DNA of 32,000 bases from Candidatus Saccharimonadota bacterium (GTDB lineage: Bacteria; Patescibacteriota; Gracilibacteria; BD1-5; UBA6164), in NCBI GenBank assembly GCA_963677765.1, contig OY782392.1, positions 510,001 through 542,000 on the forward strand, read 5' to 3'. The notes under the pieces are model-generated. The model saw nothing but the letters and a program-made list of their open reading frames with translations. It ran no database searches and had not been told where the DNA came from. Positions 6,894 through 32,000 of this stretch are shown here, in pieces. Numbering within the stretch: position 1 is the first letter of the stretch; each line of letters begins with the position of its first letter. Position numbers and translations under genes: made by a program.

Positions 6894-7021
6894 AATTTAT
6901 ATAATGATTCCAATTTTAATATTTAATTATATTATTATGAATTATACTAAAACAGAAAAATTAATTTTATTTAAGAATTATTAGTAAAAAAAAATAATTT
7001 TAGATTTTAAATAAATAATAC

Positions 7022-8254
7022 ATGTTAAAAAATACAGATAAAGATATTTATGATTTGATTTTAAAAGAAGAATCAAGACAAGAAAATGAAATAGAATTAA
7101 TTGCTTCAGAAAATTATGCTTCATTAGATGTATTAGAAGCTGCTTGAAGTATACTTTCAAATAAATACAGCGAATGATATCCATGAAAAAGATATTATGC
7201 ATGACAAGAAAATATAGATAAAATAGAAAATATAGCTATAAATAGAGCAAAAGAGCTTTTTTGAGCTGAATATGTAAATGTTCAACCTTTATCATGAAGT
7301 CCAGCTAATTTAGCCGTATATTTATGAGTATTAAAACCAGGAGATACTGTTTTATGACTTAGTTTAGATCAAGGTTGACATTTAAGTCATGGTCATCCAA
7401 TGAATTTTTCATGAATATTATATAATATTGTTCCTTATTTTCTTGATAAGGAAAAAGAAATAATAGATATGGATGAAGTTGAACGTATAGCTTTGGAAAC
7501 AAAACCAAAAATGATATTGGCTTGATTTTCTGCATATTCTAGAGATTTAGATTGGAAAAGATTTAGAGAAATAGCTGATAAAGTTTGAGCAATTTTAATG
7601 GCAGATATAGCACATATTGCATGATTAATAGCTTGATGAGTATTAGAAAATCCTGTTCCATATTGTGATATAGTTACTACTACTACTCATAAAACTCTTA
7701 GATGACCAAGATGAGCTATTATTATGTCTAAGGAGAAATATTCAAAAGATATAGCAAGAGCAGTTTTTCCTTGAGTACAATGATGACCACACGAAAATCT
7801 TATTGCAGCAAAAGCGGTTGCTTTCAAAGAGGCTTTAGATCCATCTTTCAAAGTCTATGCTAGACAAGTTGTAGACAACGCAAGGTTTTTAGCTGATTTA
7901 TTAATGAAAAACTGATTTAAAATAACTTCAAATTGAACTGATAATCATTTAATACTTATAGATGTTTTTTCTAGTTTTTGAGTAACATGAAAAGAAGCTG
8001 AAATCGCTTTAGAAAAAGTAGGTTTATCTACCAATAAAAATATGGTACCATATGATGTTAGAAAACCTATGGATCCATCATGAATTAGAATTTGAACTCC
8101 TGCAGTTACTACAAGATGAATGAAAGAAGAAGAAATGAAAATAATAGCTGATGTTTTTACTAGAGCTATCAAGAATCATAATAATGATAATATTTTAGAA
8201 TGATTAAAATCAGAAATATTAGATTTATGTAAAAGATTTCCTATTTATAAATAG
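7022..8254 (+). CDS. glyA: serine hydroxymethyltransferase
   Basis: ATG 7022, TAG 8252..8254, 410 aa. Motifs [33 protein letters not shown] (PLP lysine) and FPGVQGGPHEN; many of the Gly are TGA. Confidence 0.95.
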
Positions 8255-8267
8255 GAAATCTTTTTTA
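8234..8267 (+). terminator. rho-independent terminator overlapping the glyA stop codon
   Basis: Perfect palindrome agatttcctattta/taaataggaaatct (8234..8261) followed by TTTTT. The TAG stop lies inside the 3' arm. Confidence 0.6.
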
Positions 8268-9008: not shown

Positions 9009-9083
9009 GTCCCTATAGTTCAACGGATAGAACAAACCCCTCCTAAGGGTTAGATGTTGGTTCGATTCCAGCTGGGGATACCA
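9009..9083 (+). tRNA. tRNA-Arg (anticodon CCT, reads AGG), CCA end encoded
   Basis: Hand-folded 75-nt cloverleaf. Acceptor GTCCCTA/TGGGGAT (two G-U pairs). D arm GTTC-AACGGATA-GAAC. Anticodon arm AACCC-CTCCTAA-GGGTT. T arm GTTGG-TTCGATT-CCAGC. Discriminator A plus CCA. It is the local GC peak of the window. Confidence 0.85.
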
Positions 9084-9139: not shown

Positions 9140-10988
9140 ATCTTTCATATTTATTTTTTAATTCTTCTAAATCAATATCAAAAACTACTGGTCTTCAATG
9201 AGGACAAGTTGCAGAATAATCTTCAACTGCATCATTTAATAATTTATTCATTTCAAATAAGTTTAATTTATTTCAAAACTTTATTGCAGATCTACAAGCT
9301 GTATATGCAAATATTTTATTTTTTACTTCATCTAAAGTTTTTGATTTATTAAAGCTATGTTCTCATATATCATCAAGAATTCAAGTAAATATATTATTTA
9401 AGTTTTCTTTTTTTATAAAATCAGGAATTCAATTTATTATAACATTATTTCCCGGTAATAATTCTAAATCAAATCACATTTCATAAAAAGTGTCTATATT
9501 GTCTTTTAAAATATTGGCTTCATTTGGCCTAATATTTATACTTTCAGCTATTAATAATCATTGAGTTGATACTTTTTTGTCTGCTTTGACAAGTTTTTCA
9601 TATATTATTCTTTCTGCTAAAGCATGTTGATCTAAAAACTTTATTCAAAAATTTGTTTCTACTATAATATAAGAGTTATGAGCTTGTCATATTATTTTTC
9701 ACATCTTAGTATAATGTAAATCATTTGAATTTTGTTCATTATTTGTATTTAAAAAATCATTATTTTCTCCTTTATTTAAGCCAAAACTTAAATTATTTCA
9801 TATATTGATTTGATTTGGATTACTTTCTATATTTTTGTAAGGAGAGTATGATTTAAACTTTGTACCTGATCAACTATAGTATTCTTTTTTTTGTTCGAAA
9901 TTATTATTATTGTTTGATATTGTACTATTGTGAGTACTCATTTTTCATAAAAAATAACTATTTATATCATTTTGTTCTTTTATTTGATTTGATACTAAGC
10001 TTACTGATTCCAATTTTTGGTTTATTGAATGGTAAACAGCTCTAAATATTGATTGCTCATTTGCAAATCTTATTTCAAGTTTTCTTGGGTGTACATTTAC
10101 ATCTATTTGTGTAGGATCAACTTCAATATCTAAAATATATGCAGGATGAGTTCAATGAGGAATATATCTATTATATGCATCATTTATTGATTTAGAAATC
10201 AGATAAGAGTTTATAGGTCTTTTATTTACATATAAATTTTGTCTATTTTTATTATTATAGTTTACTTTTGGGTCAGATATATATCATTTTATACTTATTC
10301 ATTGCATTCAAAAGTCAATTTCAAGTATATTATCAGATATATCATTAGAATAAATATTATATATTCTTGTTATTTTATCTTCATTTTCTTTGTATTTGAA
10401 TATTTGTTTTCAATCAGATATAAATTCAAATCATATTTCTGGATATATAAGGGCTATTTGATATAAATAATTTAAAATATGATTGTATTCTGTTCTAGCT
10501 GTTTTTAAATAATTTAATCTTGCAGGAGTATTATAAAATAAATTTTCAATTATAATTTTAGTTCATTTATCTCTTGGGCAAGTTATTATTTTTTGTTTTT
10601 CTCATCATAAAACCTTTATACTAGATCAAAAATCATCAACTTGGTTTTTTGTTTCAATTGTCATATCTGATACTGATGATATAGATGAAATAGCTTCTCA
10701 TCTAAATCAAAAAGTCATTATATTATGAAGATCTTTTATGTTTTTAATTTTAGAAGTAGAATACTTTTCTACTGCTAAGTCTAAGTATTTTTTTTCTATA
10801 CCATCTCAATCATCATCTATATATATTTCTTTTATTCATCATTCTATTATAGATACTTTTATATTTTTTGAATTAGCATCTATAGAGTTTTCTATTAATT
10901 CTTTTATTACAGAAACAGGTCTTTCAACTACTTCTCAAGCAGCGATTTGATTTGATAAAACCTTATCTAATTTTATTATTTCAGCCAC
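9138..10988 (-). CDS. mutL: DNA mismatch repair protein MutL
   Basis: GTG 10988..10986 (an in-frame TAA lies 3 codons upstream and there is no ATG before the conserved N-terminus). TAA 9140..9138, 616 aa. Motifs [58 protein letters not shown] and CPHGRP. Confidence 0.9.
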
Positions 10989-11011
10989 TTTGTTTTAGTA
11001 TTAGGAGATAA

Positions 11012-11713
11012 TTATTTTTTATTACTAAATAACAATTTGTTATGTTCTTCAAATTTTTCAATTACCATATGTAAAAGTTTGAATTTTTCTCATTTTTTTA
11101 AGTATATATATCATGTAATAGATGCTATAAGTGCTCATAGAGCATCTATCATTAAGTCAAACATTGTATCTCTAACTCATAATCTAGTATCCATATAACC
11201 GTATATAGATTCTAGTGCTTTTGCTTTTTGCATATTAGCACTTGTAAATTCATCTATCCAGAATTCAAATACTTCCCATATTGCTCATAGCATCATTGCA
11301 AAACTAAATGCAAATATTGCAATAATTATTTTTGGAGCAATTAATTTTCATGCTTTATATAGCATATACATTATAAGGAAACCTATAAATCATAATGCTA
11401 TTCATGCAAATGTATGTAGTAAAGTATCCCACCAGAATATTTTTTCATAAAAATCATTTACTTCTCATAGAAATAATGAAAAATATATAAAAAATATTAT
11501 AATTACTTGTATTTCTTTAGGTATAACTATTTTATATTTTGCAAAAATTAAATAAAAATAAGTTAACAATAAAGTTAACAATGTAATAAATACGGTAATC
11601 CAATTTTTTTCATAAATTCATATAAATGTTGCTAATACTAGTGTAAATCTCATTAACATAGTAAAGCTATCACTAAAAAAAATTTTTTTAGCTAGGTTAA
11701 AAATTCTTCTCAT
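11012..11713 (-). CDS. integral membrane protein, YjdF/DUF2238-like
   Basis: ATG 11713..11711, TAA 11014..11012, 233 aa. By-eye resemblance to YjdF motifs: WWDTLLHTFAG, IWEVFEFWIDE and RDTMFDLMIDALGALIAS. Confidence 0.45.
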
Positions 11714-11783
11714 TTATTTTATTTAACTATTTATTATATATTTATAGTATATAAATTTTTGTTTAAAAAAAAAGATAAATCTC

Positions 11784-12017
11784 TTATGATTTATCTTTTT
11801 TATCTTTGAATATATCCATAACTGAATCTTTTATTTGTTCTGGTATAGAAGCATAAGCACTAAAAATTTGTTTTATTTTATTATAAAACTCTACTATTTC
11901 CATTACAGGTCATAGTATTTTTAATACTCTTATAATCAAAACTATAAGAAGAGTTCAAATTATTGATGAAAATACAATTAATACTAAATAAAGTATTTCT
12001 AATATAGTTAATTCCAT
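11784..12017 (-). CDS. small membrane protein (77 aa)
   Basis: ATG 12017..12015, TAA 11786..11784. One TM helix (ILYLVLIVFSSIIGTLLIVLII). The stop lies inside the hairpin aaagataaatc/gatttatcttt, which is followed by a T-run on the minus strand. Confidence 0.45.
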
Positions 12018-12030
12018 AATATATATTTTT

Positions 12031-12525
12031 TTAAATTAAATCTATCTCTTTATTTATATCTAATTTAATAGATTTTACAAGTTTTTGAATATTTTCTTTT
12101 CAAGAAATTATTTTTAATTTTTTCGCATTTTCAAATACAACTATAGATGGAATTTCTTCAACTCACAAATCTTTATAGTCATATCAATCTATTTTTTCTT
12201 TTGATAACTTTAGATATATGTTTTGAGAAAATGTTTTTGTTACTAAAATAGGGTATTCATAAGTAAGGCTTTTAAAAAAGTCACTTTCTTCTTTTGCTAT
12301 TATTAAAATAGATCTTTTTACAAATACTTTATGTTCTCAAGTTTCTTTGCTAGTGAATTCCTTATTTTTTGATTTTTCTATTAGTAAATCTAGTCATTCT
12401 TTATCTTTTATAGATGCTTTAGAATTTATTATAGATTTTCATGTGCTTTCCAATTTTTCATTAGCTAACTCTCAAGCTTTTTTTGTAGCTTCAGTTAATT
12501 TATCTTTTATTTTTTTAAAATCCAT
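12031..12525 (-). CDS. hypothetical protein (164 aa); the C-terminal half looks thioredoxin-fold-like but has no CxxC
   Basis: ATG 12525..12523, TAA 12033..12031. The segment EIPSIVVFENAKKLKIISGKENIQKLV resembles the C-terminal beta-strands of thioredoxins. The protein contains no cysteine. Confidence 0.45.
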
Positions 12526-12628: not shown

Positions 12629-12670
12629 ATGCCCAGTTTTTAACTATTTTTAATTTTTTAAATAAATTTT

Positions 12671-13024
12671 ATGACAAATTCAGAACTAATTAAAAAGGTT
12701 CAAGCTCCTTTTTTACAAGAAGACAGACCTCAAATAAGAACAGGTATGGAAGTAGAAGTATACCAAATTATTAAAGAAAACAACAAAGAAAGAGTACAAA
12801 GATTTAAAGGTTTAGTTATTAAAACTGCTGGTAAATCAGAATTAGAAAAAACTATAACTGTAAGAAGAAAAATTGGTGCTTTTGGTGTAGAAAAAGTTTT
12901 TACTATACATTCTCCAACTATTCAAAAAATTGAAGTATTAAGACAATTTAAAGTTAGAAGAAAATCTATTAAATTTATCAGAGACCTTACTGGTAAAGCT
13001 GCTAGACTTAAAGAAGTTAGATAA
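12671..13024 (+). CDS. rplS: 50S ribosomal protein L19
   Basis: Intact even under the standard code. The 117-aa sequence MTNSELIKKVQAPFLQEDRPQIRTGMEVEVY...RRKSIKFIRDLTGKAARLKE is typical L19. All 6 Gly are GGT and there is no TGA. Confidence 0.97.
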   Translation: MTNSELIKKVQAPFLQEDRPQIRTGMEVEVYQIIKENNKERVQRFKGLVIKTAGKSELEKTITVRRKIGAFGVEKVFTIHSPTIQKIEVLRQFKVRRKSIKFIRDLTGKAARLKEVR

Positions 13025-13028
13025 TTAT

Positions 13029-13058
13029 AAACCCTTTATTATAAGGGTTTATTTTTTT
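13029..13058 (+). terminator. rho-independent terminator of rplS
   Basis: Arms aaaccctt (13029..13036) / aagggttt (13043..13050), followed by a T-run. Confidence 0.6.
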
Positions 13059-13063
13059 ATTTT

Positions 13064-13093
13064 AAAAGAGATGTTATATAACATCTCTTTTTT
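13064..13093. terminator. second, bidirectional hairpin between rplS and the tiny minus-strand ORF
   Basis: Arms aaaagagatgtta (13064..13076) / taacatctctttt (13079..13091), with A-run and T-run flanks. Confidence 0.5.
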
Positions 13094-14742: not shown

Positions 14743-14772
14743 TTGCAAAAATAACTATAAGTATGTTAAAAT
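14743..14772 (+). promoter_or_regulatory. candidate promoter with extended -10 for the acidic protein gene
   Basis: TTGCAA (14743..14748), 18-nt spacer, TGT-TAAAAT (14764..14772). It lies in the loop/arm of the gatA terminator hairpin, whose arms are 14748..14759 / 14776..14787. Confidence 0.35.
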
Positions 14773-14802
14773 ACCTATAGTTATTTTTTATTTATAATAA
14801 TT

Positions 14803-16002
14803 ATGTCATCACCATTAATTCCAAGCTCAAATATGCCTTGATTTGAAAATCCAGAAGAAAGAAGAAGAATAGATGAGGATAATCAAAGGTTTAAACAATT
14901 AAATGAAAGTGCTACACCAGAACAAACAGAACAAATTAAAAATGAAGCATCTGAAATTTTTTGAAAATCTTTTGATCCAAATGAAAATATAATTGATGTT
15001 TCAGAATTAGAAAAACAAGATGATTTTGAAAATCCAGATGATATATTAAATAATCTTGATTCAGTTGATTCTAATATTCAAAATTTAGATAGTGAACAAA
15101 CATTAGTAAATGAATCTTCTAATAATACAGATGAATTAATTGTAGGGAGTTCTTCAAATGATGAGTCTAATTCTATAGAGGAAGCTAACACAAGATCTTC
15201 AGACTCTATATCTCCTTATTCTCCAGTAGTTGATAGACTATTATCTATAAATGAGATTACAGAAGAAGAACACCAAGAAATTTTATCTAAACTTAACTCT
15301 TATACTAGAGAAGAAGGTAAAAACTATTTTTTAGCTATGGTTGAAAATATAGATAATAAAGATATAAAAAATAATATTGTTGATTCATTTGAATCCAATA
15401 GTAATATAAATGAGTCTAATTTTGATAAATCTGATTTTTATAAAGATTCTACAGATTTAAATATTGATCTTGATAATTGAGTTTGAGGTTTGGAAATAAT
15501 GCTTGCAAAAAACTATATTGATATACCTAGTCCTGAATGAAAATCAAACAAAGATGAAAATATTAATCAATCAATGGATGTAACCTTAAATACAATTTTG
15601 ACAAACAATTCAAAAGATTTTATTCAAAATAATTCTGATTTAATAGATGAAATAAAGTCTCAAACAAATCTTAATGATAAATATAATTCTTTAAAAAAAT
15701 TATACAAAGAAGATTTAAAAGAAGATGCTAAAATAGGTTGAAAAAAATGATTAGAAGAATCTAAAAGAAAGAAAAACTCTTTAATAGAAAAAGCTAAAAA
15801 ATTAAATGAAGAAATAAAAGATGCTAAAAATATAGAAGATAATGAGTTAAAAGAAAAAAAATTAGAAGAACTAAATAAACAAAAACAAGAAATTATTGAT
15901 GAATGAAATTGAATAGATAATTTTGAAGCAGAAATATTATCATTGTCTTGATGAGATATAGATAAATCAAATGAGTCAACAAAAAACAATGAAACTAATT
16001 AG
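14803..16002 (+). CDS. acidic Asn/Asp/Glu/Ser-rich hypothetical protein (399 aa)
   Basis: ATG 14803, TAG 16000..16002, open with TGA=Gly. Low-complexity acidic N-terminal half and a Lys/Glu coiled-coil-like C-terminal part. No recognisable domain. Confidence 0.55.
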
Positions 16003-16020
16003 TTTCATTGTTTTTTGTTG
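15977..16020. terminator. perfect 44-nt palindrome (22+22) acting as a bidirectional terminator inside the 3' ends of two convergent genes
   Basis: caacaaaaaacaatgaaactaa / ttagtttcattgttttttgttg is an exact reverse complement with no spacer. It contains the TAG (16000..16002, + strand) and the TAA (16001..15999, - strand). Confidence 0.7.
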
Positions 16021-17444
16021 ATTATAAATATTATTACTAAAAAATATATAAATACTAATAATCCTTTATATATTCATAAATCAACAGAAATAATTGAGTT
16101 AGGATTGCTTCAAAAATAATTTACTATATTTATATCCCATTTTAGTAATATATATGCTAGAAATCAAAATAAATATCAAAAAATATATATAAAATCTAAA
16201 AATATAATTGATAAAAATCAAAATAGCATAGCTAATGGTATAGTCCATGCAACTAAAACATTTGTAATAGGTGATATTATAGATATTTGTCAAAAATTAG
16301 TTGCCATAATAGGTATAGTAAAAATATATGCAGCTAATGTTATAGAAATAGCATTTCTTATTTCTAATGTATTTGGTAAAAATTTTAAAATTTTATCAAA
16401 TCAATCTTTAAAATACATTATTCATAATACAGCTAAAAAACTCAAATGTAGAGATACATCATAATTTAAACTATATGGATTTATAGTAATCATAATTATT
16501 AAAGCAAGTACTATAACTGCCAAATTATTAGCTTTTCTACCATTAATTATTATGTAATATCAAATTACTCACATAATAGCTGCTCTTATAACTGGAGCAC
16601 TAAATCATACTAAAAAACAAAATAACAATATAGAAATTGATATTATAGTTAGTCTCATATATTTATTTAATCATTTTATTAAATATGATATAAATAATAT
16701 AATTATTGTTATATTAAATCATGATACAGCAATAAAGTGAGTTAATCAAGAATTATTGAAATTATTATTTAATTCTTTAGGTATTGATTCTCTTGCTCAC
16801 AATAGTATTCATCATAAAAAGATTGCTTCTTCATTAGGATATAATTTATGAATGTTTTTTAATAAATATTCTCTTGTTCTTATTATATTTGACTCAATAA
16901 TATTTATTTTTTCTATTTTTATTTTTTCATATGTATATGGATAAGATTTAAAATATATTCATTTTGAGTACATATACTTTTTATAATCAAAACTATCAAA
17001 ATTTTTAATTGAGTAAATTTTTGTTTTAGTTTTTATTATTGTTCACTTTTCTAGTTTATAGTTTCATTTTATATATATTTCTCATTTTATATTTTCATTT
17101 ATTAATAATGTTTTATATATAGTATATTTTTCATCTATTTTGTTAATTCATATTATTTTTATTAGATAATCTTTGTTTATTTCTTGAATATAATTAACTT
17201 TGTCTATATTAATGTCTATATTTATTTTATTTATCTCTGAAACTATTATTCATATAAAAAATCAAATCAAAATTAATATAAATATATAATTTATTTTTCT
17301 TTTTATAATAATAAACAATAAAAAAAGCACTACTAAAAATAGTAGTACTAGGAGAGATGTAAAAAATAGGAGAGTTATATTATTGATATATATTCATGAT
17401 AAATAGAAAAATCATATCAATATAAATATTTTTGATTTATTCAT
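15999..17444 (-). CDS. comEC: ComEC/Rec2 DNA internalization channel protein (short form, no metallo-beta-lactamase domain)
   Basis: ATG 17444..17442, TAA 16001..15999, 481 aa. Competence-domain motifs FLGGILLGARESIP, NNSGLTHFIAVSGFNITII and SAPVIRAAIMG. Multi-TM throughout. Confidence 0.85.
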
Positions 17445-17448
17445 TATA

Positions 17449-18243
17449 TTAGTTATTTATTACAACTTTTTCTTTAGGTTCTTCTTTATATATATTATAC
17501 AATCTTTTTACACAAAAAATAAATAATATTATTGCTCATATTTGAGTAAAGTTAATTCATATCATATCTTTGAATATTCAATACTTTCAACTAAAAAATT
17601 CTAATATAAACACTGTACAAGAAATAAGCATTAAACCTAAGTATCATATAATTTTATTATAGTTTAGATACATAGAACTTATATATAATCAACAAAATAT
17701 AATAAAGAAAGATATAGAATAAATTATAGGTAAAGGAAATACCGGTACTTTATATGGTACTGGAGTAAAAGGGTGATTATACATTATTTCAATACCTAGA
17801 AATGTTTCTTTTCAATATACTTGTCATCAAAGTAATGCTCATATATATCATATAGGAAGTATAAATAAGAATGAAATAACTAATCATGTAATAAAATTAT
17901 CTAATTTTTCTTTTCTTATTCTAAGTAATATATAAAATACTACTAAAAATCAAAATATAGCTCAAGTTAATGAAAAATGATAATCATTCATTATAAAAAA
18001 CTCAATAGGGTTTTCTATATGTTTTAGATCATTCCATCTAGATATTACATAAAATAATCTAGAAAAGAAAAATATTCATATAAAATACCATAATAAATTT
18101 TTTTTGAATATTATGAAGTCAAATCATATTTTAATAGACATTTTTTTTAACATCCATACAAAAAGAAAAAAACTTATTGTAATTGTAAGTCAAAAAGTAT
18201 ATATCAATACTCATGTTATTGGTTCTGTAATAAATGGATACAC
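17449..18243 (-). CDS. Lgt (prolipoprotein diacylglyceryl transferase)-like integral membrane protein, divergent
   Basis: GTG 18243..18241 (no in-frame ATG before the first TM helix), TAA 17451..17449, 264 aa. By-eye collinearity with E. coli Lgt: GVLIYTFGL ~ HWYGL, IGYIGALLGGQVYGKET ~ GRLGNFINGELWGR, ILEFFSGK ~ VEFFRQ. Confidence 0.45.
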
Positions 18244-20869: not shown

Positions 20870-21084
20870 TGTCCTTTTTTATTAAACTATAAATAGATAA
20901 AAATCCGTTCTTTAAAAAATATGTAAATTATTTTACATATAAAATATCAAATATTTTATTGAATATAAATGAAGTTTTTTGGATAATTAAAGAAAATTTT
21001 ATTTTTTCAAATTTTTATTTTATTGGGAACTTATAATATTATATAAGCTTTTATAGTTTACACATTTTTGAGATAATGCAATAA

Positions 21085-21120
21085 AAAAAACTATTACTTT
21101 TTTAAAAGTAATAGTTTTTT
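21085..21120 (-). terminator. rho-independent terminator of fusA
   Basis: 17-bp arms aaaaaactattactttt (21085..21101) / aaaagtaatagtttttt (21104..21120), immediately downstream of the fusA stop. Confidence 0.6.
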
Positions 21121-21124
21121 TATA

Positions 21125-23272
21125 TTAATCTTCATCAGGTAATTTGAAACCTCTTTCTTCTCTAATTTTAGTAGCAACGTTAGTTGGAACTTCTTCATAA
21201 TGATCAAATTCCATAGCATATGTAGCTCTACCTTGAGAAGCAGATCTTAAATCAGTCATGTAACCAAACATTTCTGATAATGGAACAAAAGCAGTAATAA
21301 TTTTTGCCATACCTCTGTTACCCATTTCTTCAATTCTACCTCTTTTTGAGTTTAATTGACCGATAACATCACCCATATATTCTTCAGGAGTATTAACTTC
21401 AACTTTCATTATTGGTTCTAATAAAGTAGCTTGTGCTTTTCTACATGCTTCTTGGAAAGCTTTAGAAGCAGCTAATTTAAATGATAATTCAGATGAGTCA
21501 ACATCATGGTAAGAACCAAATGTAAGAGTAGCTTTTATATCAACCATTGGATAACCAGCTATAAAACCTCTTGCATAAGCTTCATTTAACCCTTTTTGAA
21601 CACCAGGAATATATTCTTTAGGTATTGTTCAACCAACTATTTTATTAACAAATTTATTTGATGGTTTTTCTTTTAATTCAGCTTTAGTGTCATCTTCATC
21701 CATTTCTTTGTATGGTTCAAAAGTGATAACAACGTGACCGTATTGACCTCTACCTCAAGTTTGTTTAGAGTATTTATGTTCAACATCAGTAGCTATTCCT
21801 TTTATAGTTTCTCTATATGAAACTTGAGGTGCACCTACATTACATTCAACTTTAAATTCTCTTTTCATTCTATCAACAATGATATCTAAGTGTAATTCAC
21901 CCATACCAGAGATAATAGTTTGAGCAGTTTCTTCATCAGTTCTAACTCTGAATGAAGGATCTTCTTCAGCTAATTTTGATAATGCCATACCCATTTTTTC
22001 TTGATCAGCTTTTGATTTTGGTTCTACTGATATAGAAATAACTGGTTCAGGGAATTCAATTGATTCTACTAAGAATTTATCATTTACATCACAAAGAGTA
22101 TCTCAAGTTTTTGTAGCTTTTAAACCTACTATAGCTCAGATATTACCAGCAGTTATTTCTGGAATTTCTACTCTATCATTTGCATGCATTTGTAATAATC
22201 TACCAACTCTTTCTTTTTCTCAAGTAGTAGCATTATAAACATAAGAACCTGATTTTAATGTACCAGCATAAACTCTTGTAAAACATAGTTTACCAACAAA
22301 TGGATCAGTAGCAATTTTAAACGCTATTGCAGCTAATGACGAATTATTTGCAACATCAATTTGTTTAAAGTTTTCACCTGATTCAATATCTTTACAATCA
22401 ATTTTTGCATCATTTACATCAACTGGAGAAGGTAAGAATTCAACAGCAGCATCAATAACCATTTGTACACCTATATTTTGTAATGCAGAACCACAAACAA
22501 CAGGATATAGTTTATTGTTTATAACAGCTTTTCTTAACCCTGCTTTTAATTCTTCAACAGTTAATTCACCTTCTTCAAAATATTTTTCCATTAATTCATC
22601 ATCTTGAGAAGCAATTTTTTCAACCATTTCTTCTCTTAATTCAGAACATCTTCCAGCTATATCAGCAGGAATTTCAATTTCAGTAATATTTTCACCTGAA
22701 TCACCTTCAAAATGGTAAGCTTTCATTCAAATTAAATCAACTATACCTTCAAATGTTTCAGCAGCTCCAATAGGATATTGAATAGGACAAACTTTATCTC
22801 AAGCTAATCTTTTTTTGATAGTATCAACTGACATTTCAAAGTCACCACCCATTTTATCCATTTTATTAACGAATGCTATTCTAGGAACTTTGTATTTATC
22901 AGCTTGTTTCCAAACAGTTTCTGATTGAGGTTCTACTCATTGAGAACCGTCAAATACAGCTACTCAACCGTCTAATACTCTAAGAGATCTTTCAACTTCT
23001 ATAGTAAAGTCTACGTGACCAGGAGTATCAATGATATTTATTTGATGATCTTTCCAGAATGCAGTAGTTGCAGCAGAAGTAATTGTAATACCTCTTTCTT
23101 TTTCTTGTTCCATCCAGTCCATTGTACCTTCACCATCGTGAGTTTCACCGATTTTGTGAATTCTACCTGTATAGTATAAAATTCTTTCTGTACAAGTAGT
23201 TTTACCTGCATCGATATGGGCAATAATACCTATATTTCTAATTTTATCTAAAGGAGCTTGTTTATTACTCAT
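21125..23272 (-). CDS. fusA: translation elongation factor G
   Basis: The four ORF-track fragments (21125..21547, 21755..21994, 22220..22726, 22964..23272) are all in one frame and join through TGA codons, giving 715 aa. Motifs [51 protein letters not shown] and [12 protein letters not shown]. Confidence 0.97.
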
Positions 23273-23455
23273 TATATAAAAATATTAAAATTTAAAAATA
23301 ATCCTAAAAACGCAAATATAATCCATCTAAATTTATCTATATATAATATATATAATTTTCTTAGATAGACGTTTTTTGGTTCGCGCGAGATTTTACTTAA
23401 TACTTTTATAAAGTCAAATTTTATTTATTTAGCCATTAAATTTGTCAATATACAG

Positions 23456-28441: not shown

Positions 28442-29154
28442 TTTGTTGTGTATTTTTTAAGTAATTTTGTATAAAAAACTAATACAGTACTAGTTAGTAT
28501 AAAGTATCATAAAGCTACTCAATCTATATTTCAATTTACATAGCTTAAATATAATCAAATACCTGATCATAATACTATTCATATAACTCAAAATAAGTTT
28601 AACCAATATCTAAGTATGTCATTTGTACTAACTAATCAAGTTGTTACTAAAGAAAATCATAGTCACATGATTATAGCAAAATATTCAGCGCTAAAATTTA
28701 TTGTTGTAAATCATAGGTTTATATCTTTATTAGAAAATGTTATAAAAAATATCAATAAAGCTATATTTAATACTCATAGACTTGCTGCATTTATAATTTT
28801 TATATCTTTGTTGAAATTATAAAAAGTAAAAGCCTTAAAAGCTGATAATATATATGCTAATTGCCATATGATATATTGAGATTGATTTAGTGCTAGTAAT
28901 CAATATATAGAAATTGTTGTAAATATAGCAGTTGCTGTAACATGATATATAGCTCATACTTTGTTGTTTTTTGAACTATAATTAGCTTGCATAACCATTA
29001 TAAATAGATTTCATAAAAAATTAGCAAAGAATAATATTATTATTTCTAATAAATTACCTTTTCATGTAACATAAACTATTATTAAAGCAATAGCTAATAG
29101 TAAATATATCCACCAGTTTTCTTTTGAAAACTTTTTCAGTTCTTGTATTAACAT
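28435..29154 (-). CDS. multi-pass membrane protein, function unknown
   Basis: ATG 29154..29152, TAG 28437..28435, 239 aa. ENWWIYLLLAIALI at the N-terminus and 6-7 hydrophobic segments. Its stop overlaps the WecA-like start (ATGATAG). Confidence 0.5.
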
Positions 29155-29214: not shown

Positions 29215-29241
29215 AAAAGAAGCAAAATCTTTGCTTCTTTT
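29215..29241. terminator. hairpin terminator upstream of the membrane-protein operon
   Basis: Arms aaaagaagcaa (29215..29225) / ttgcttctttt (29231..29241), with A-run and T-run flanks. Confidence 0.5.
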
Positions 29242-29263
29242 AAAATTGTTCGTTTAGTTTTAG

Positions 29264-29331
29264 TTTTGATTTTCTTTTATTGTTTCTAGTTGATGTATGT
29301 AAATGCTTCATGTAGAATTATTTTGGAAGTC
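29264..29331. repeat. 68-bp intergenic copy of an internal segment of the large surface-protein gene
   Basis: ttttgattttcttttattgtttctagttgatgtatgtaAatgcttcatgtagaattattttggaagtc matches 30287..30354 at 67 of 68 positions. The single difference is a at 29302 versus g at 30325. Confidence 0.9.
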
Positions 29332-29363
29332 GTTACTAGTAGATTATTGTTTTAAATAGAAAT

Positions 29364-29393
29364 AATATCTAATCCTGACAAGGATTAGATATT
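29364..29393 (-). terminator. 13-bp-stem hairpin containing the stop of the 151-aa ORF
   Basis: Arms aatatctaatcct (29364..29376) / aggattagatatt (29381..29393), loop gaca. Confidence 0.5.
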
Positions 29394-29824
29394 GTTTTAT
29401 TAAACAAATAAAAATTAATATCATCTCTACTAGGTAAAAAATATTCATAAGGAATATCATACTTAGGATATGCAAAATAATTTTTTTTATAAAGATATAT
29501 ATTAAATAATGATTCTAATTTAAATCAAAAAATATAAGGAACTCTATCTTCTGATTTGTAATTTCTTAAATAATAACAATTTTTTATAGGTTTTATATTT
29601 TGATTATATATTTTATTAAAATCTTTTAAATATAGAAATTGCTCATCATTTCTTTTTAAGTCTTTTAATACTATTTTAACTTTTTCTAATTGTTTAAAAT
29701 TATAGTTATCTATATATAGTCAATATGATTCTCTGACAATAAACATTACTAACAAAATTAAAAATCATATCTTAAATACTTTTATATCTATTTGTTTAAT
29801 TATTTTTTTTATATTTTCTTTCAT
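29369..29824 (-). CDS. hypothetical N-terminally membrane-anchored protein (151 aa)
   Basis: ATG 29824..29822, TAG 29371..29369. TM helix VFKIGFLILLVMFIV followed by a Tyr/Asn/Lys-rich domain. Starts 11 nt after the stop of the large gene. Confidence 0.5.
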
Positions 29825-29835
29825 ATTTTAATTAA

Positions 29836-32000
29836 TTATTTTTTATTATTTCATTTTAAAAATTTATTCTTAAAATCTAGATTTACTATATTTTGTCAGT
29901 TATTTAGTTTTATTTCAAAATAATTATTAGTTGGTTTTTCTTGTTCCCAGTTTGGTTTCATAACTATTTTTATACTATAATTTCATCTTTCTAAATCTTT
30001 AAATTCATAATATCAATTATTATCTGTAACTACAAATGATTCTTGATTTTCTTGTAGTTTTCAATCATTGTTACTATCTATATAGATTTTCCATCATGCC
30101 ATATTTGAATTTCATGGAGAATTTATTCATTTTAGATATCATGATATACTTCAAGTTTCATTTTCACTCTTTGGGAGTGAATTAAAGTAACTTTGTATAT
30201 CATATAATCAATCATTATTTGTATCTATAGAATATGATATACTATTATCTTCTTCATTTATTACTTTATTCCAGTTAATATCAAAATTTTGATTTTCTTT
30301 TATTGTTTCTAGTTGATGTATGTAGATGCTTCATGTAGAATTATTTTGGAAGTCATCTACTAATATATTGTATGAATTATTTTCGGTTTTATTATCATCA
30401 AAATCTATTTTAATATTTTCTCTTGATATATTAAATGTATCTGTTTGTCATAAGCTAGTACTTATTCACTCCAGTTTTGTATAATAGTCTCATCATGCTA
30501 TCATTATGTCATACTTTTCTTCAGCTTTACCATTTATTTCTATACTTAGATTTTCTAGTTTTTGTGGTAAGTAGATTTGTTTCCAATTATTTTGTTCTAA
30601 ATCACCATTTAATGGAACTAAAAGTCTAGCTCAAGGAATTTCTTCAAAAATATTTCAATCTTTATATCATACTTTATTACCATCTTTATCTTTTAATAAA
30701 AAATCAGAATCTCATTTGAAAGTATATAATATATCAACTACATTAAATCAAATAGGAAAAGATTTATTTCAATTATTGTTGACTTCCTCTATATCCATTA
30801 ATCATATCAATGTTAAACTTGTTTCATTAGCATCTTGTCTAGAGGTTATTTCAATATTTCAATCATTAATTTCTATATATTGTTCATATGATTTTAACTC
30901 TCAATATTCCTCACTATTAAAAAATGGAAACTTAACTACATTATCATAAATATATATTCTATTTCATTCTATTCTATATGGAATCACAGAGTGTCAGGTA
31001 AGTTTTCAATCAGATTTTTTCCATTCAAAATTAAGTATATATTTTTTATCTGGATTATTTTTTAGAGTTTCAAGTATTTTATTTGGATTTAAAGTATGAA
31101 TTCAAATAATATTTTTAGGGATTCAATCATTATTTAATTGATAATTATTTTTATTGTATTGAGATAAATGAAAAGCAAATATATCTTCTAAATCATCACT
31201 ATATAAATCCCAATTTTGATTTAAATCAGAGCTAGGATTACTAATCAAATCATATATATTACCATTTTTTATTTTAGTGTATAATCTGTTATGATTTTGC
31301 TCTAGATAATTTGGTATATTTTTACTTTTAAAATAATCATCTTGATATTTTAATAATGATAAAGTTGATAATCAAAAACAACTACCATTATTTATAAATG
31401 TTATATCATTATTTAATCATAATGATTCATATGCTCTAATTCTTTTAATTTCTCATTTTTCAAATCAAGTTCAAGCTCTTGTATCAAAAGCTTTATCAAA
31501 TATTTTCCATTTTCTTCAATCATCTTCTGATATTTTATAAAAAGGTTTATTATATGTAAATTTTATATCATATGTTCAAGTTAGTATTCAAGTAGCTGGA
31601 CTTCAATTCACAAAATTAAACCCATAAGGATAAGGTTCAAATCATTCAAAAAGTGAAAAATCTATTTCCCATGTTTGGTTTGTAACATAGTCAACTACTT
31701 CACTTTCATTTCAATTATTGTCAGTTATTTTTGCTTTCCATATATAATTTCATTCTCATATATATGGTACTATAGTAGTTCATGTTCATGAAATAAGCTC
31801 TATACTATCAGTATATAAAGGAGTTTTTTCTCATTTTCTATATACTTCAAATACCATGTTATATTTAGTTGTTGTATCGTTTTGTATACTTGCTTCCAAT
31901 ATTATTCAACTTCAAGATTGAAACTTACCTATACTACTTCATAGTTCTATCTCTTCTTTTTCTAGAAGTGGTGATTTTATATATTGTTTTAAGTTTGTTG
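29836..32000 (-). CDS. large secreted/surface protein (C-terminal 720 aa in window): beta-sandwich region, putative papain-like Cys/His module, Ca-binding-type DxNxDG loops, C-terminal SdrD-B-like domain
   Basis: One frame stays open from 31998 to TAA 29838..29836 with TGA=Gly. NNGSCFGLS (Cys codon 31378..31380) and TGHSVIPY (His codon 30991..30993) lie 129 residues apart. Also DTNNDGLYD, and GWKIYIDSNNDGKLQENQESFVVTDNNGYYEFKDLERGNYSIKIV. Confidence 0.7.
30287..30354. repeat. parental copy of the 68-bp repeat, inside the large surface-protein CDS (encodes DFQNNSTGSIYIHQLETIKENQN)
   Basis: Direct repeat of 29264..29331 with an offset of exactly 1023 bp. Weaker similarity continues for about 20 nt on the right-hand (higher-coordinate) side only. 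Confidence 0.9.

Follow-up and report, generated by a model that had tools for sequence, protein, structure and literature searches.

The question raised by this locus is why a short internal piece of a surface-protein gene should occur a second time, almost unchanged, in the intergenic space behind that gene. The window, as the whole stretch of 32,000 nucleotides analysed here will be called, comes from a genome deposited as Candidatus Saccharimonadota bacterium (GenBank assembly GCA_963677765.1, contig OY782392.1, positions 510,001 to 542,000 of the forward strand), and the second copy of the segment, copy A, lies between two terminator-like hairpins near the end of this stretch. Copy A is probably a truncated orphan module, the beginning of a spare C-terminal cassette of the kind that relatives keep behind the same gene, made near-identical to the parental segment by recent recombination or gene conversion. 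A first-pass annotation of the window had read copy A as a non-coding duplicate of a stretch from inside the neighbouring surface-protein gene and its near-identity as the mark of a recent event or continuing gene conversion; both statements stand, the second within a gene family that is as a whole a recombination mosaic, and the interpretation is supported in part. Its deletion-switch and antisense ideas are not supported as proposed, and it missed that a displaced orphan C-terminal module begins with the repeated segment.

Both copies are read on the minus strand, as are all genes of the surface-protein locus. Copy B (30287..30369), here called the H segment, lies within the main gene, 150 codons ahead of its stop, and its core (30287-30354) encodes DFQNNSTGSIYIHQLETIKENQN. 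Copy A (29264..29345), the stub, consists of an orphan junction followed by 68 nucleotides (nt) that match copy B at 67 of 68 positions. The repeat finder returns the pair as a direct repeat (29264-29331 against 30287-30354, 68 nt, 99%) with a spacing of 1023 bp, and gapped self-BLAST extends it to 29264-29345 against 30287-30369 (83 columns, 94%, one gap, E 5e-29), so that the identity claimed earlier, and the weaker similarity claimed beyond one side, were both recovered. It is the sole significant direct repeat of the 32 kb by self-BLAST, the remaining self-matches all being hairpin palindromes, and a 29-mer taken from it, searched for with up to 3 mismatches, has exactly two occurrences in the window and none in any of 100 dinucleotide shuffles. 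Uninterrupted identity between the copies covers only 38 + 29 nt, with one substitution in the core and an indel and a further substitution at the 5' edge of copy A. Copy A reads TAA-STSN-DFQNN...KENQN-TAA in a single frame, without a start codon, with an in-frame TAA 4 codons upstream and another directly downstream (29261-29263); the translations and flanking stops given by the first-pass annotation are right under genetic code 25, in which TGA encodes glycine.

That this code applies can be read from the window itself. TGA stands at conserved glycines of elongation factor G (SQ*VEPQSE; 21125-23284) and of serine hydroxymethyltransferase (*HLSHGH; 7019-8254), and open reading frames of at least 100 codons number 18 under table 11 as against 52 with TGA as a sense codon. 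Because TGA occupies conserved glycine positions and long reading frames appear only when it is read through, the window is assigned code 25. It is a piece of a Gracilibacteria chromosome; its G+C content is 21.8%, and the named homologs of the proteins discussed here all belong to Candidatus Gracilibacteria. Copies of the window proteins in public protein databases show another residue at TGA codons (tryptophan where it is shown), and therefore they are only 93-98% identical to the correct translation. Pipelines that read this DNA with the standard code would miss the whole locus.

What copy A represents becomes apparent from the relatives, whose modules were mapped by tblastn under code 25. 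In these genomes the main gene and a small partner gene are followed by promoter-less, start-less orphans, each composed of H, an alternative C-terminal domain and another small gene. At locus L001, from Gracilibacteria MAG_52, whose main protein is 64% identical to that of the window, the order is main gene, a small gene of 167 amino acids (small-B), a start-less module of H plus CT-A (the C-terminal type that is expressed in the window), small-A, and a fragment of small-B. The L001 orphan (9431-9955) starts exactly at LVDDFQNISTGSIYLHKLEIIKEKQ and holds a complete alternative C-terminal domain, and the array closes with a copy of the small-B 3' end at 95% identity. At locus L005, from MAG STE_112, the main gene and its partner small1 precede three orphan modules (from 8816, 9914 and 11082), each with H on both sides, the last of them truncated after about 95 codons directly ahead of mscL. 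Partial modules stand behind main or small genes at L003, L007, L011 and L012, and the L001 and L011 arrays end without an H stub. A small gene of its own stands behind every C-terminal module, the truncated stub of the window being the exception. Within a genome, H of the main gene and H of an orphan agree at 63-68 of 72 positions in L001 and L005, and at 57 of 72 for an orphan with an internal deletion. The first-pass annotation gave the distance between the two window copies as exactly 341 codons; the spacing is correct, but a multiple of three is uninformative for an intergenic copy, and 1023 bp is rather the length of a module, with H-to-H spacings of 1066 in L001 and 1098-1225 in L005.

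The junction ties copy A to these arrays. Four orphans of L001 and L005 begin directly after the hairpin of the preceding small gene, at TAGTAGAYGAYTTYCAAAA (TAGTAGAYGAY in the relatives), and copy A begins with CTAGTA-ACGACTTCCAAAA (CTAGTA-ACGAC) at the same position after the hairpin of its own small gene; the orphans of L001 and L005, like the stub, have in-frame stops upstream and no upstream start. Since copy A agrees with an orphan start in position, junction and sequence, and ends after 68 nt, a truncated orphan module is its most likely identity. All of the roughly 20 homologs that reach the H region keep DDFQNN...KE.Q and run on into a C-terminal region. Copy A is therefore a fragment of derived origin rather than the relic of an older gene end. 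On the same ground the idea was rejected that copy A and the hairpin behind it were the original 3' end, which became displaced when the C-terminal domain and the 151-amino-acid gene were inserted. Orphans fall into at least three start classes, LVDDF, YQIDSDNDG (L007) and GEK(T/L)MAGWKVCID (L003, L012), which favours repeated displacement by recombination over a site-specific mechanism; an att-like or integron-like cassette was accordingly discarded, the L007 and L003/L012 orphans starting at two other positions and the locus holding no recombinase. Similarity of the stub past KENQN toward the "ELNID" type of other family members was also considered and was judged to be AT-rich matching at chance level.

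It is clear from the comparison with L001 that modules have changed places. The window from 30363 to 29466 aligns with the L001 orphan at 82% over 911 nt, beginning at the orphan's first base, and this block covers the expressed C-terminus and two thirds of the 151-amino-acid gene, whereas the colinear comparison with the end of the active L001 gene gives about 72%. In the variable part, identity to the L001 orphan is 85-95% as against 53-80% to the active L001 end. The active module of the window being nearer to an L001 orphan than to the active L001 end, modules have been transferred between silent (orphan) and expressed sites, and by this alignment one lineage expresses a module that another keeps silent. 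Mosaicism extends to the core of the gene, where stretches of 90-100% nucleotide identity to L001 alternate with stretches of 50-55%, a sign of recent exchange of segments between lineages or between paralogs. Two such stretches of the main gene, 31381-31201 and 31111-30931, are 90-100% identical to the paralog-like L001 main gene with flanks at 50-55%, and the peptide LLKYQDDYFKSKNIPNYLEQNHNRLYTKIKNGNIYDLISNPSS is identical in the two. The intact orphans contain no stops or frameshifts over 170-220 codons, and the ratio of nonsynonymous to synonymous change (omega) is 0.25 at a synonymous divergence (dS) of 0.48 for the window module against the L001 orphan and 0.22 at a dS of 0.22 for the L005 main gene against its orphan 2; on these values the intact orphans are under purifying selection and are not decaying.

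The interpretation favoured here would connect these observations as follows. Spare modules, each composed of H, an alternative C-terminal domain and a copy of the partner gene, lie without promoter or start codon behind the main gene and its partner, and homologous recombination at H would move them between the silent and the expressed position, while recombination at the same segment would also expand, shrink and truncate the arrays, which may serve to vary the C-terminus of the surface protein together with its partner. The array of the window would have been reduced to the expressed module and the first 76 nt or so of the next one, the rest of that module having presumably been deleted, and the stub would be either what is left of a longer array or one edge of a recombined segment, with recent recombination or gene conversion having preserved or produced its near-identity to the main gene. 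Several points weigh against this account. The stub is about 76 nt long and holds nothing diagnostic beyond H by which a former C-terminal domain could be demonstrated; the exact 29-mer of the repeat is absent from the genome_contigs and metagenome_contigs collections, so the history of this particular stub is one that we infer, as we infer any present-day switching at the locus; the hairpin ahead of copy A differs in sequence from the AAAGGAAAA...TTTTCCTTT hairpin ahead of the L001 and L005 orphans; and the low omega values could stem from recent displacement of the modules instead of selection on silent copies.

Other explanations of the stub have to be weighed against the same evidence. It might be maintained as a right-hand homology arm, so that DNA taken in from relatives with arrays of the form H, C-terminal domain, small gene, H replaces the resident module by double crossover, in which case the stub would be functional and not a remnant. 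Every L005 module is flanked by H on both sides, the family is pervasively mosaic, the first 8 nt of the stub carry one deletion and one substitution while its 68-nt core is almost unchanged, and the window contains a ComEC-like gene (15999-17456), identified by reading its translation and not by search. This proposal nevertheless appears unlikely, given that uninterrupted identity of 38 + 29 nt is short for efficient recombination, that the L001 and L011 arrays end without such a stub, and that a recent event accounts for the near-identity equally well. The first-pass annotation had suggested instead that recombination between the repeats deletes the C-terminal domain and the 151-amino-acid gene and leaves a protein ending in KENQN and a stop, as a phase or structural switch. 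Deletion between direct repeats of such a size is a known process, and it is physically possible between these two, which match at 67/68 positions in direct orientation at a spacing of 1023 bp; the reading frame would be preserved, TAA following the repeat immediately and the downstream hairpin standing 22 nt further on. The loss of 1023 bp including the 151-amino-acid gene would however be irreversible, and a one-way deletion is not a phase switch; neither inverted repeats nor a recombinase were found at the locus by the repeat finder or in the gene translations of the window. In the predicted structure the cut would fall within a beta-sandwich, between two strands, and none of the roughly 20 homologs that extend this far ends there, the shortest natural C-termini lying about 45-50 amino acids beyond that point. 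A stop after the repeat is unremarkable at 22% GC, where by base composition roughly 1 codon in 13 is TAA or TAG. A deletion switch is for these reasons improbable, although the deletion as such could occur. Much the same small probability attaches to a one-off neutral event, be it a templated patch or filler at a repaired break or the last trace of a local tandem duplication: the window has a single short copy, and nothing survives beyond H to prove that it belonged to a module, yet copy A shares its exact junction and its position behind the small-gene hairpin with full orphans of two genomes, which would not be expected of a random patch.

The hairpins on either side of copy A bear on another of the proposals. 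Both had been noted in the first-pass annotation and both were found again as terminator-like sites, two against 0.2 expected and both on the minus strand. T1 (29364..29393, minus strand) has a 13 bp stem and a T-rich tail, overlaps the stop of the 151-amino-acid gene and is built partly from its last codons, ATATCTAATCC...GGATTAGATAT encoding I S N P C Q D and the stop, whereas in relatives a separate AAAGGAAAA...TTTTCCTTT hairpin follows the small-gene stop. T2 (29215..29241, minus strand), with a 12 bp stem and a T-tract, closes the array ahead of the next gene downstream, which encodes a membrane protein of 239 amino acids and starts near 29154. It had been proposed that copy A is transcribed from the plus strand and that the transcript, ending at 29364-29393, is antisense to the surface-protein mRNA. 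T1 is nearly symmetric, GTTTTATT follows it on the plus strand, and a promoter-like site matching at 9/12 positions lies at 29290-29318 on that strand; this site falls inside the repeat, though, and so is present in copy B as well (30313-30341), it comprises the only plus-strand promoter-like hexamers, and promoter-like matches in the region do not exceed shuffles (35 found against 41 expected). The terminators are oriented for the minus-strand genes, Rfam returns no match, the strong folding z-score of the plus-strand stretch is due to the T1 hairpin alone, and relatives hold whole modules at this position and no conserved small RNA, all of which makes the antisense RNA very unlikely. Hardly any weight can be given, finally, to an assembly artefact at a repeat shared between paralogous loci. 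The genome does contain at least one paralog of the main gene (P0011), and a family member from another metagenome-assembled genome is cut at a contig end (P0005); copy A, however, differs from copy B by a core substitution and by the indel and substitution at its 5' edge, lies in unique sequence between two well-formed terminators, and has analogues in the truncated modules of independent assemblies.

If the stub is taken, as preferred here, for the beginning of a lost orphan module, the nature of the protein whose C-terminus the modules encode becomes of interest. The 3' 2.16 kb of the main surface-protein gene occupy 29836..31998 on the minus strand, as delimited by the code-25 reading frame, homologs, invariant columns, the structural model and Pfam; the stop lies at 29836 and the start beyond the end of the window, the full protein (P0001) having 998 amino acids. 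Compared with 22 homologs, it comprises a signal-peptide-like N-terminus, an N-terminal domain that varies, a core that is conserved, beta-sandwich domains and, at the C-terminus, an SdrD_B-like domain. The core (window 30379-31998; P0002 residues 250-850) matches nothing in Pfam, NCBIfam or PDB sequence searches. C450 is invariant in it, and H578 and D594/N595 are conserved at 90% or more; in the predicted model, with a predicted local distance difference test score (pLDDT) of 70-90 over the core, the cysteine sits at a helix N-terminus and the histidine and the aspartate or asparagine on successive strands. Foldseek ranks the animal transglutaminases TG2, TG3 and FXIII highest for the model (E about 1e-5), but their template modelling (TM) scores are 0.1-0.16; pilins and adhesins of Gram-positive bacteria and a cysteine protease of Treponema are also among the best matches, again with low TM-scores. 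The prediction is suggestive of a transglutaminase/papain-like fold, and the main protein may act at the surface as an enzyme and not purely as an adhesin.

The expressed C-terminal module CT-A (29839..30286, minus strand), whose closest relative is the L001 orphan module, opens with a conserved calcium-loop region (INW..V.N...DTNNDGLYD) and continues into a variable SdrD_B/prealbumin-like domain with a lysine-rich tail. The SdrD-B-like character noted at first pass is seen, although the window protein scores 23.2 bits against PF17210 (SdrD B-like) and so falls below the Pfam gathering threshold of 29.7; the L003 C-terminus passes it at 39.4 bits, and P0009 reaches 29.6 bits. H itself lies inside a beta-sandwich and not at a domain border, so that a cut there would separate strand 800-808 from strand 812-818 in the P0002 model. 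Behind the conserved stretch DDFQNN...INW...D.NNDG.YD the family is hypervariable, with at least five C-terminal architectures. The types scanned with Pfam give SdrD_B, CarboxypepD_reg or SpaA-like domains or no match, some types carry lysine/glutamate-rich inserts or are unannotated, and no toxin domain is recognisable in the types scanned. At L010 (1622-7051) a small partner gene separates two tandem family members, whose C-termini are helical and lysine-rich, not beta-sandwich.

The partner gene of the window (29369..29824, minus strand) encodes 151 amino acids, with an N-terminal membrane helix and a small alpha/beta domain with conserved cysteines. Its family has 95 members (P0024-P0118), all unannotated, the named ones all from Gracilibacteria, and it follows main genes and orphan modules alike, several contigs carrying 2-4 copies. 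The model is confident (pLDDT 91) and shows a long N-terminal helix and a small alpha/beta domain; no Pfam, NCBIfam or PDB sequence match was obtained, and no PDB fold match for the model. Whatever C-terminal type precedes them, the partner proteins form one family with shared invariant residues. The window copy is a mosaic of four parts, each most similar to a different small gene.

Parallels with polymorphic toxin loci of the Enterobacteria are instructive up to a point. As with the rhs-CT/rhsI and cdiA-CT/cdiI orphans, a main gene and a small gene are followed by 3' fragments, each with its own small gene; the C-terminus is hypervariable behind a conserved demarcation motif; the fragments keep a conserved coding stretch (57-68 of 72 nt, 67 of 68 in the window) without start or export signals; an orphan of L001 is the C-terminal type expressed in the window; and arrays contain truncated modules. 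Recombination of Rhs orphans with the main gene through the retained conserved segment has been demonstrated experimentally, and in Salmonella the orphan of one strain is the expressed C-terminus of another (Koskiniemi et al., 2014; PMC3967940). The homology arm here is about 70-180 nt, compared with 522 bp in Salmonella Rhs. Unlike the Rhs and CdiA systems, this one has no detectable toxin domain, its C-termini being SdrD_B/prealbumin-like beta-sandwiches, lysine/glutamate-rich inserts or unannotated sequence; its partners belong to a single family for all C-terminal types, in place of toxin-specific immunity proteins; its main protein has a predicted transglutaminase/papain-like core and no Rhs/YD or haemagglutinin repeats; and its host is a code-25 CPR (candidate phyla radiation) bacterium. 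Type V, VI and VII secretion systems (T5SS, T6SS, T7SS) were not seen on reading the window translations, the neighbourhoods not having been searched systematically. Because no toxin domain is found and one partner family serves every C-terminal type, membership in a polymorphic toxin family is, on present sequence evidence, not supported, and a toxin/immunity reading was set aside on both counts.

Antigenic variation from silent cassettes offers a second comparison, exemplified by pilE/pilS in Neisseria, vlsE in Borrelia and MgPa/MgPar in Mycoplasma genitalium. These systems too have promoter-less partial copies of a surface gene near the expressed one, with shared segments that allow recombination. 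They differ in that the spare copies described here each carry a complete downstream partner gene, and in that the copies are few (0-3) and in tandem behind the expressed gene, so that a simple deletion, and not non-reciprocal conversion, could activate them. In the string of Ig-like/prealbumin-like beta-sandwiches and the DxNxDG calcium loops of its C-terminus, the main protein resembles Gram-positive adhesins and pilins such as SdrD, UafA and BcpA; unlike the Sdr proteins it has a lysine-rich tail and no LPXTG sorting signal, and its catalytic-looking Cys-His-Asp core is absent from them. No description of an orphan-module architecture in Gracilibacteria or in this protein family was found in the literature searched. 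The published "hypervariable" Gracilibacteria gene (PMC6851277) is another gene, from a different genome.

A few further observations concern the surroundings of the arrays and of the window. At L012 (5358-8790) there is a degenerate array, in which the remains of a main gene contain stops, four small genes stand one after another and a C-terminal domain is present as a fragment; this array adjoins a ribosomal-protein gene cluster and gyrA. Directly downstream of the L001 cassette array, at 10650-12072, six tandem units of about 225 nt each encode hairpins like those of ATP synthase subunit c (Pfam ATP-synt_C on the called gene), and these units look multiplied or fused. Elsewhere in the window, palindromes of 28-48 nt, perfect or nearly so, stand at gene ends and between genes (15976-16021, 8231-8264, 13064-13091, 21080-21126 and 14747-14788) and are probably bidirectional terminators; a tRNA-Arg(CCT) gene at 9009-9083 is the sole RNA gene detected; and at 12658-13035 reading frames of similar length on the two strands (126 and 121 codons) give odd-looking translations.

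Taken by itself the 68-nt repeat is a small recombination remnant, and its value is as a pointer to a cassette architecture in an unannotated family. Gracilibacteria, which use code 25, have not been cultivated, and next to nothing is known of the biology of their cell surface. It is tentatively suggested, as a possibility that the present comparisons raise without making it the probable one, that they carry an undescribed polymorphic surface system, in which a secreted transglutaminase- or protease-like protein would have its C-terminus and the cognate membrane partner swapped with silent cassettes and with the DNA of relatives, H segments such as copy A acting as recombination arms. If modules really are exchanged in this way, the arrays would give CPR bacteria a means of varying their surface or of switching partners, and the orphan-module logic of toxin loci would also serve surface proteins that are not toxins. 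Were the suggestion true, an ultra-small and probably host-dependent bacterium could vary the anchoring of a surface protein or the target to which it binds.

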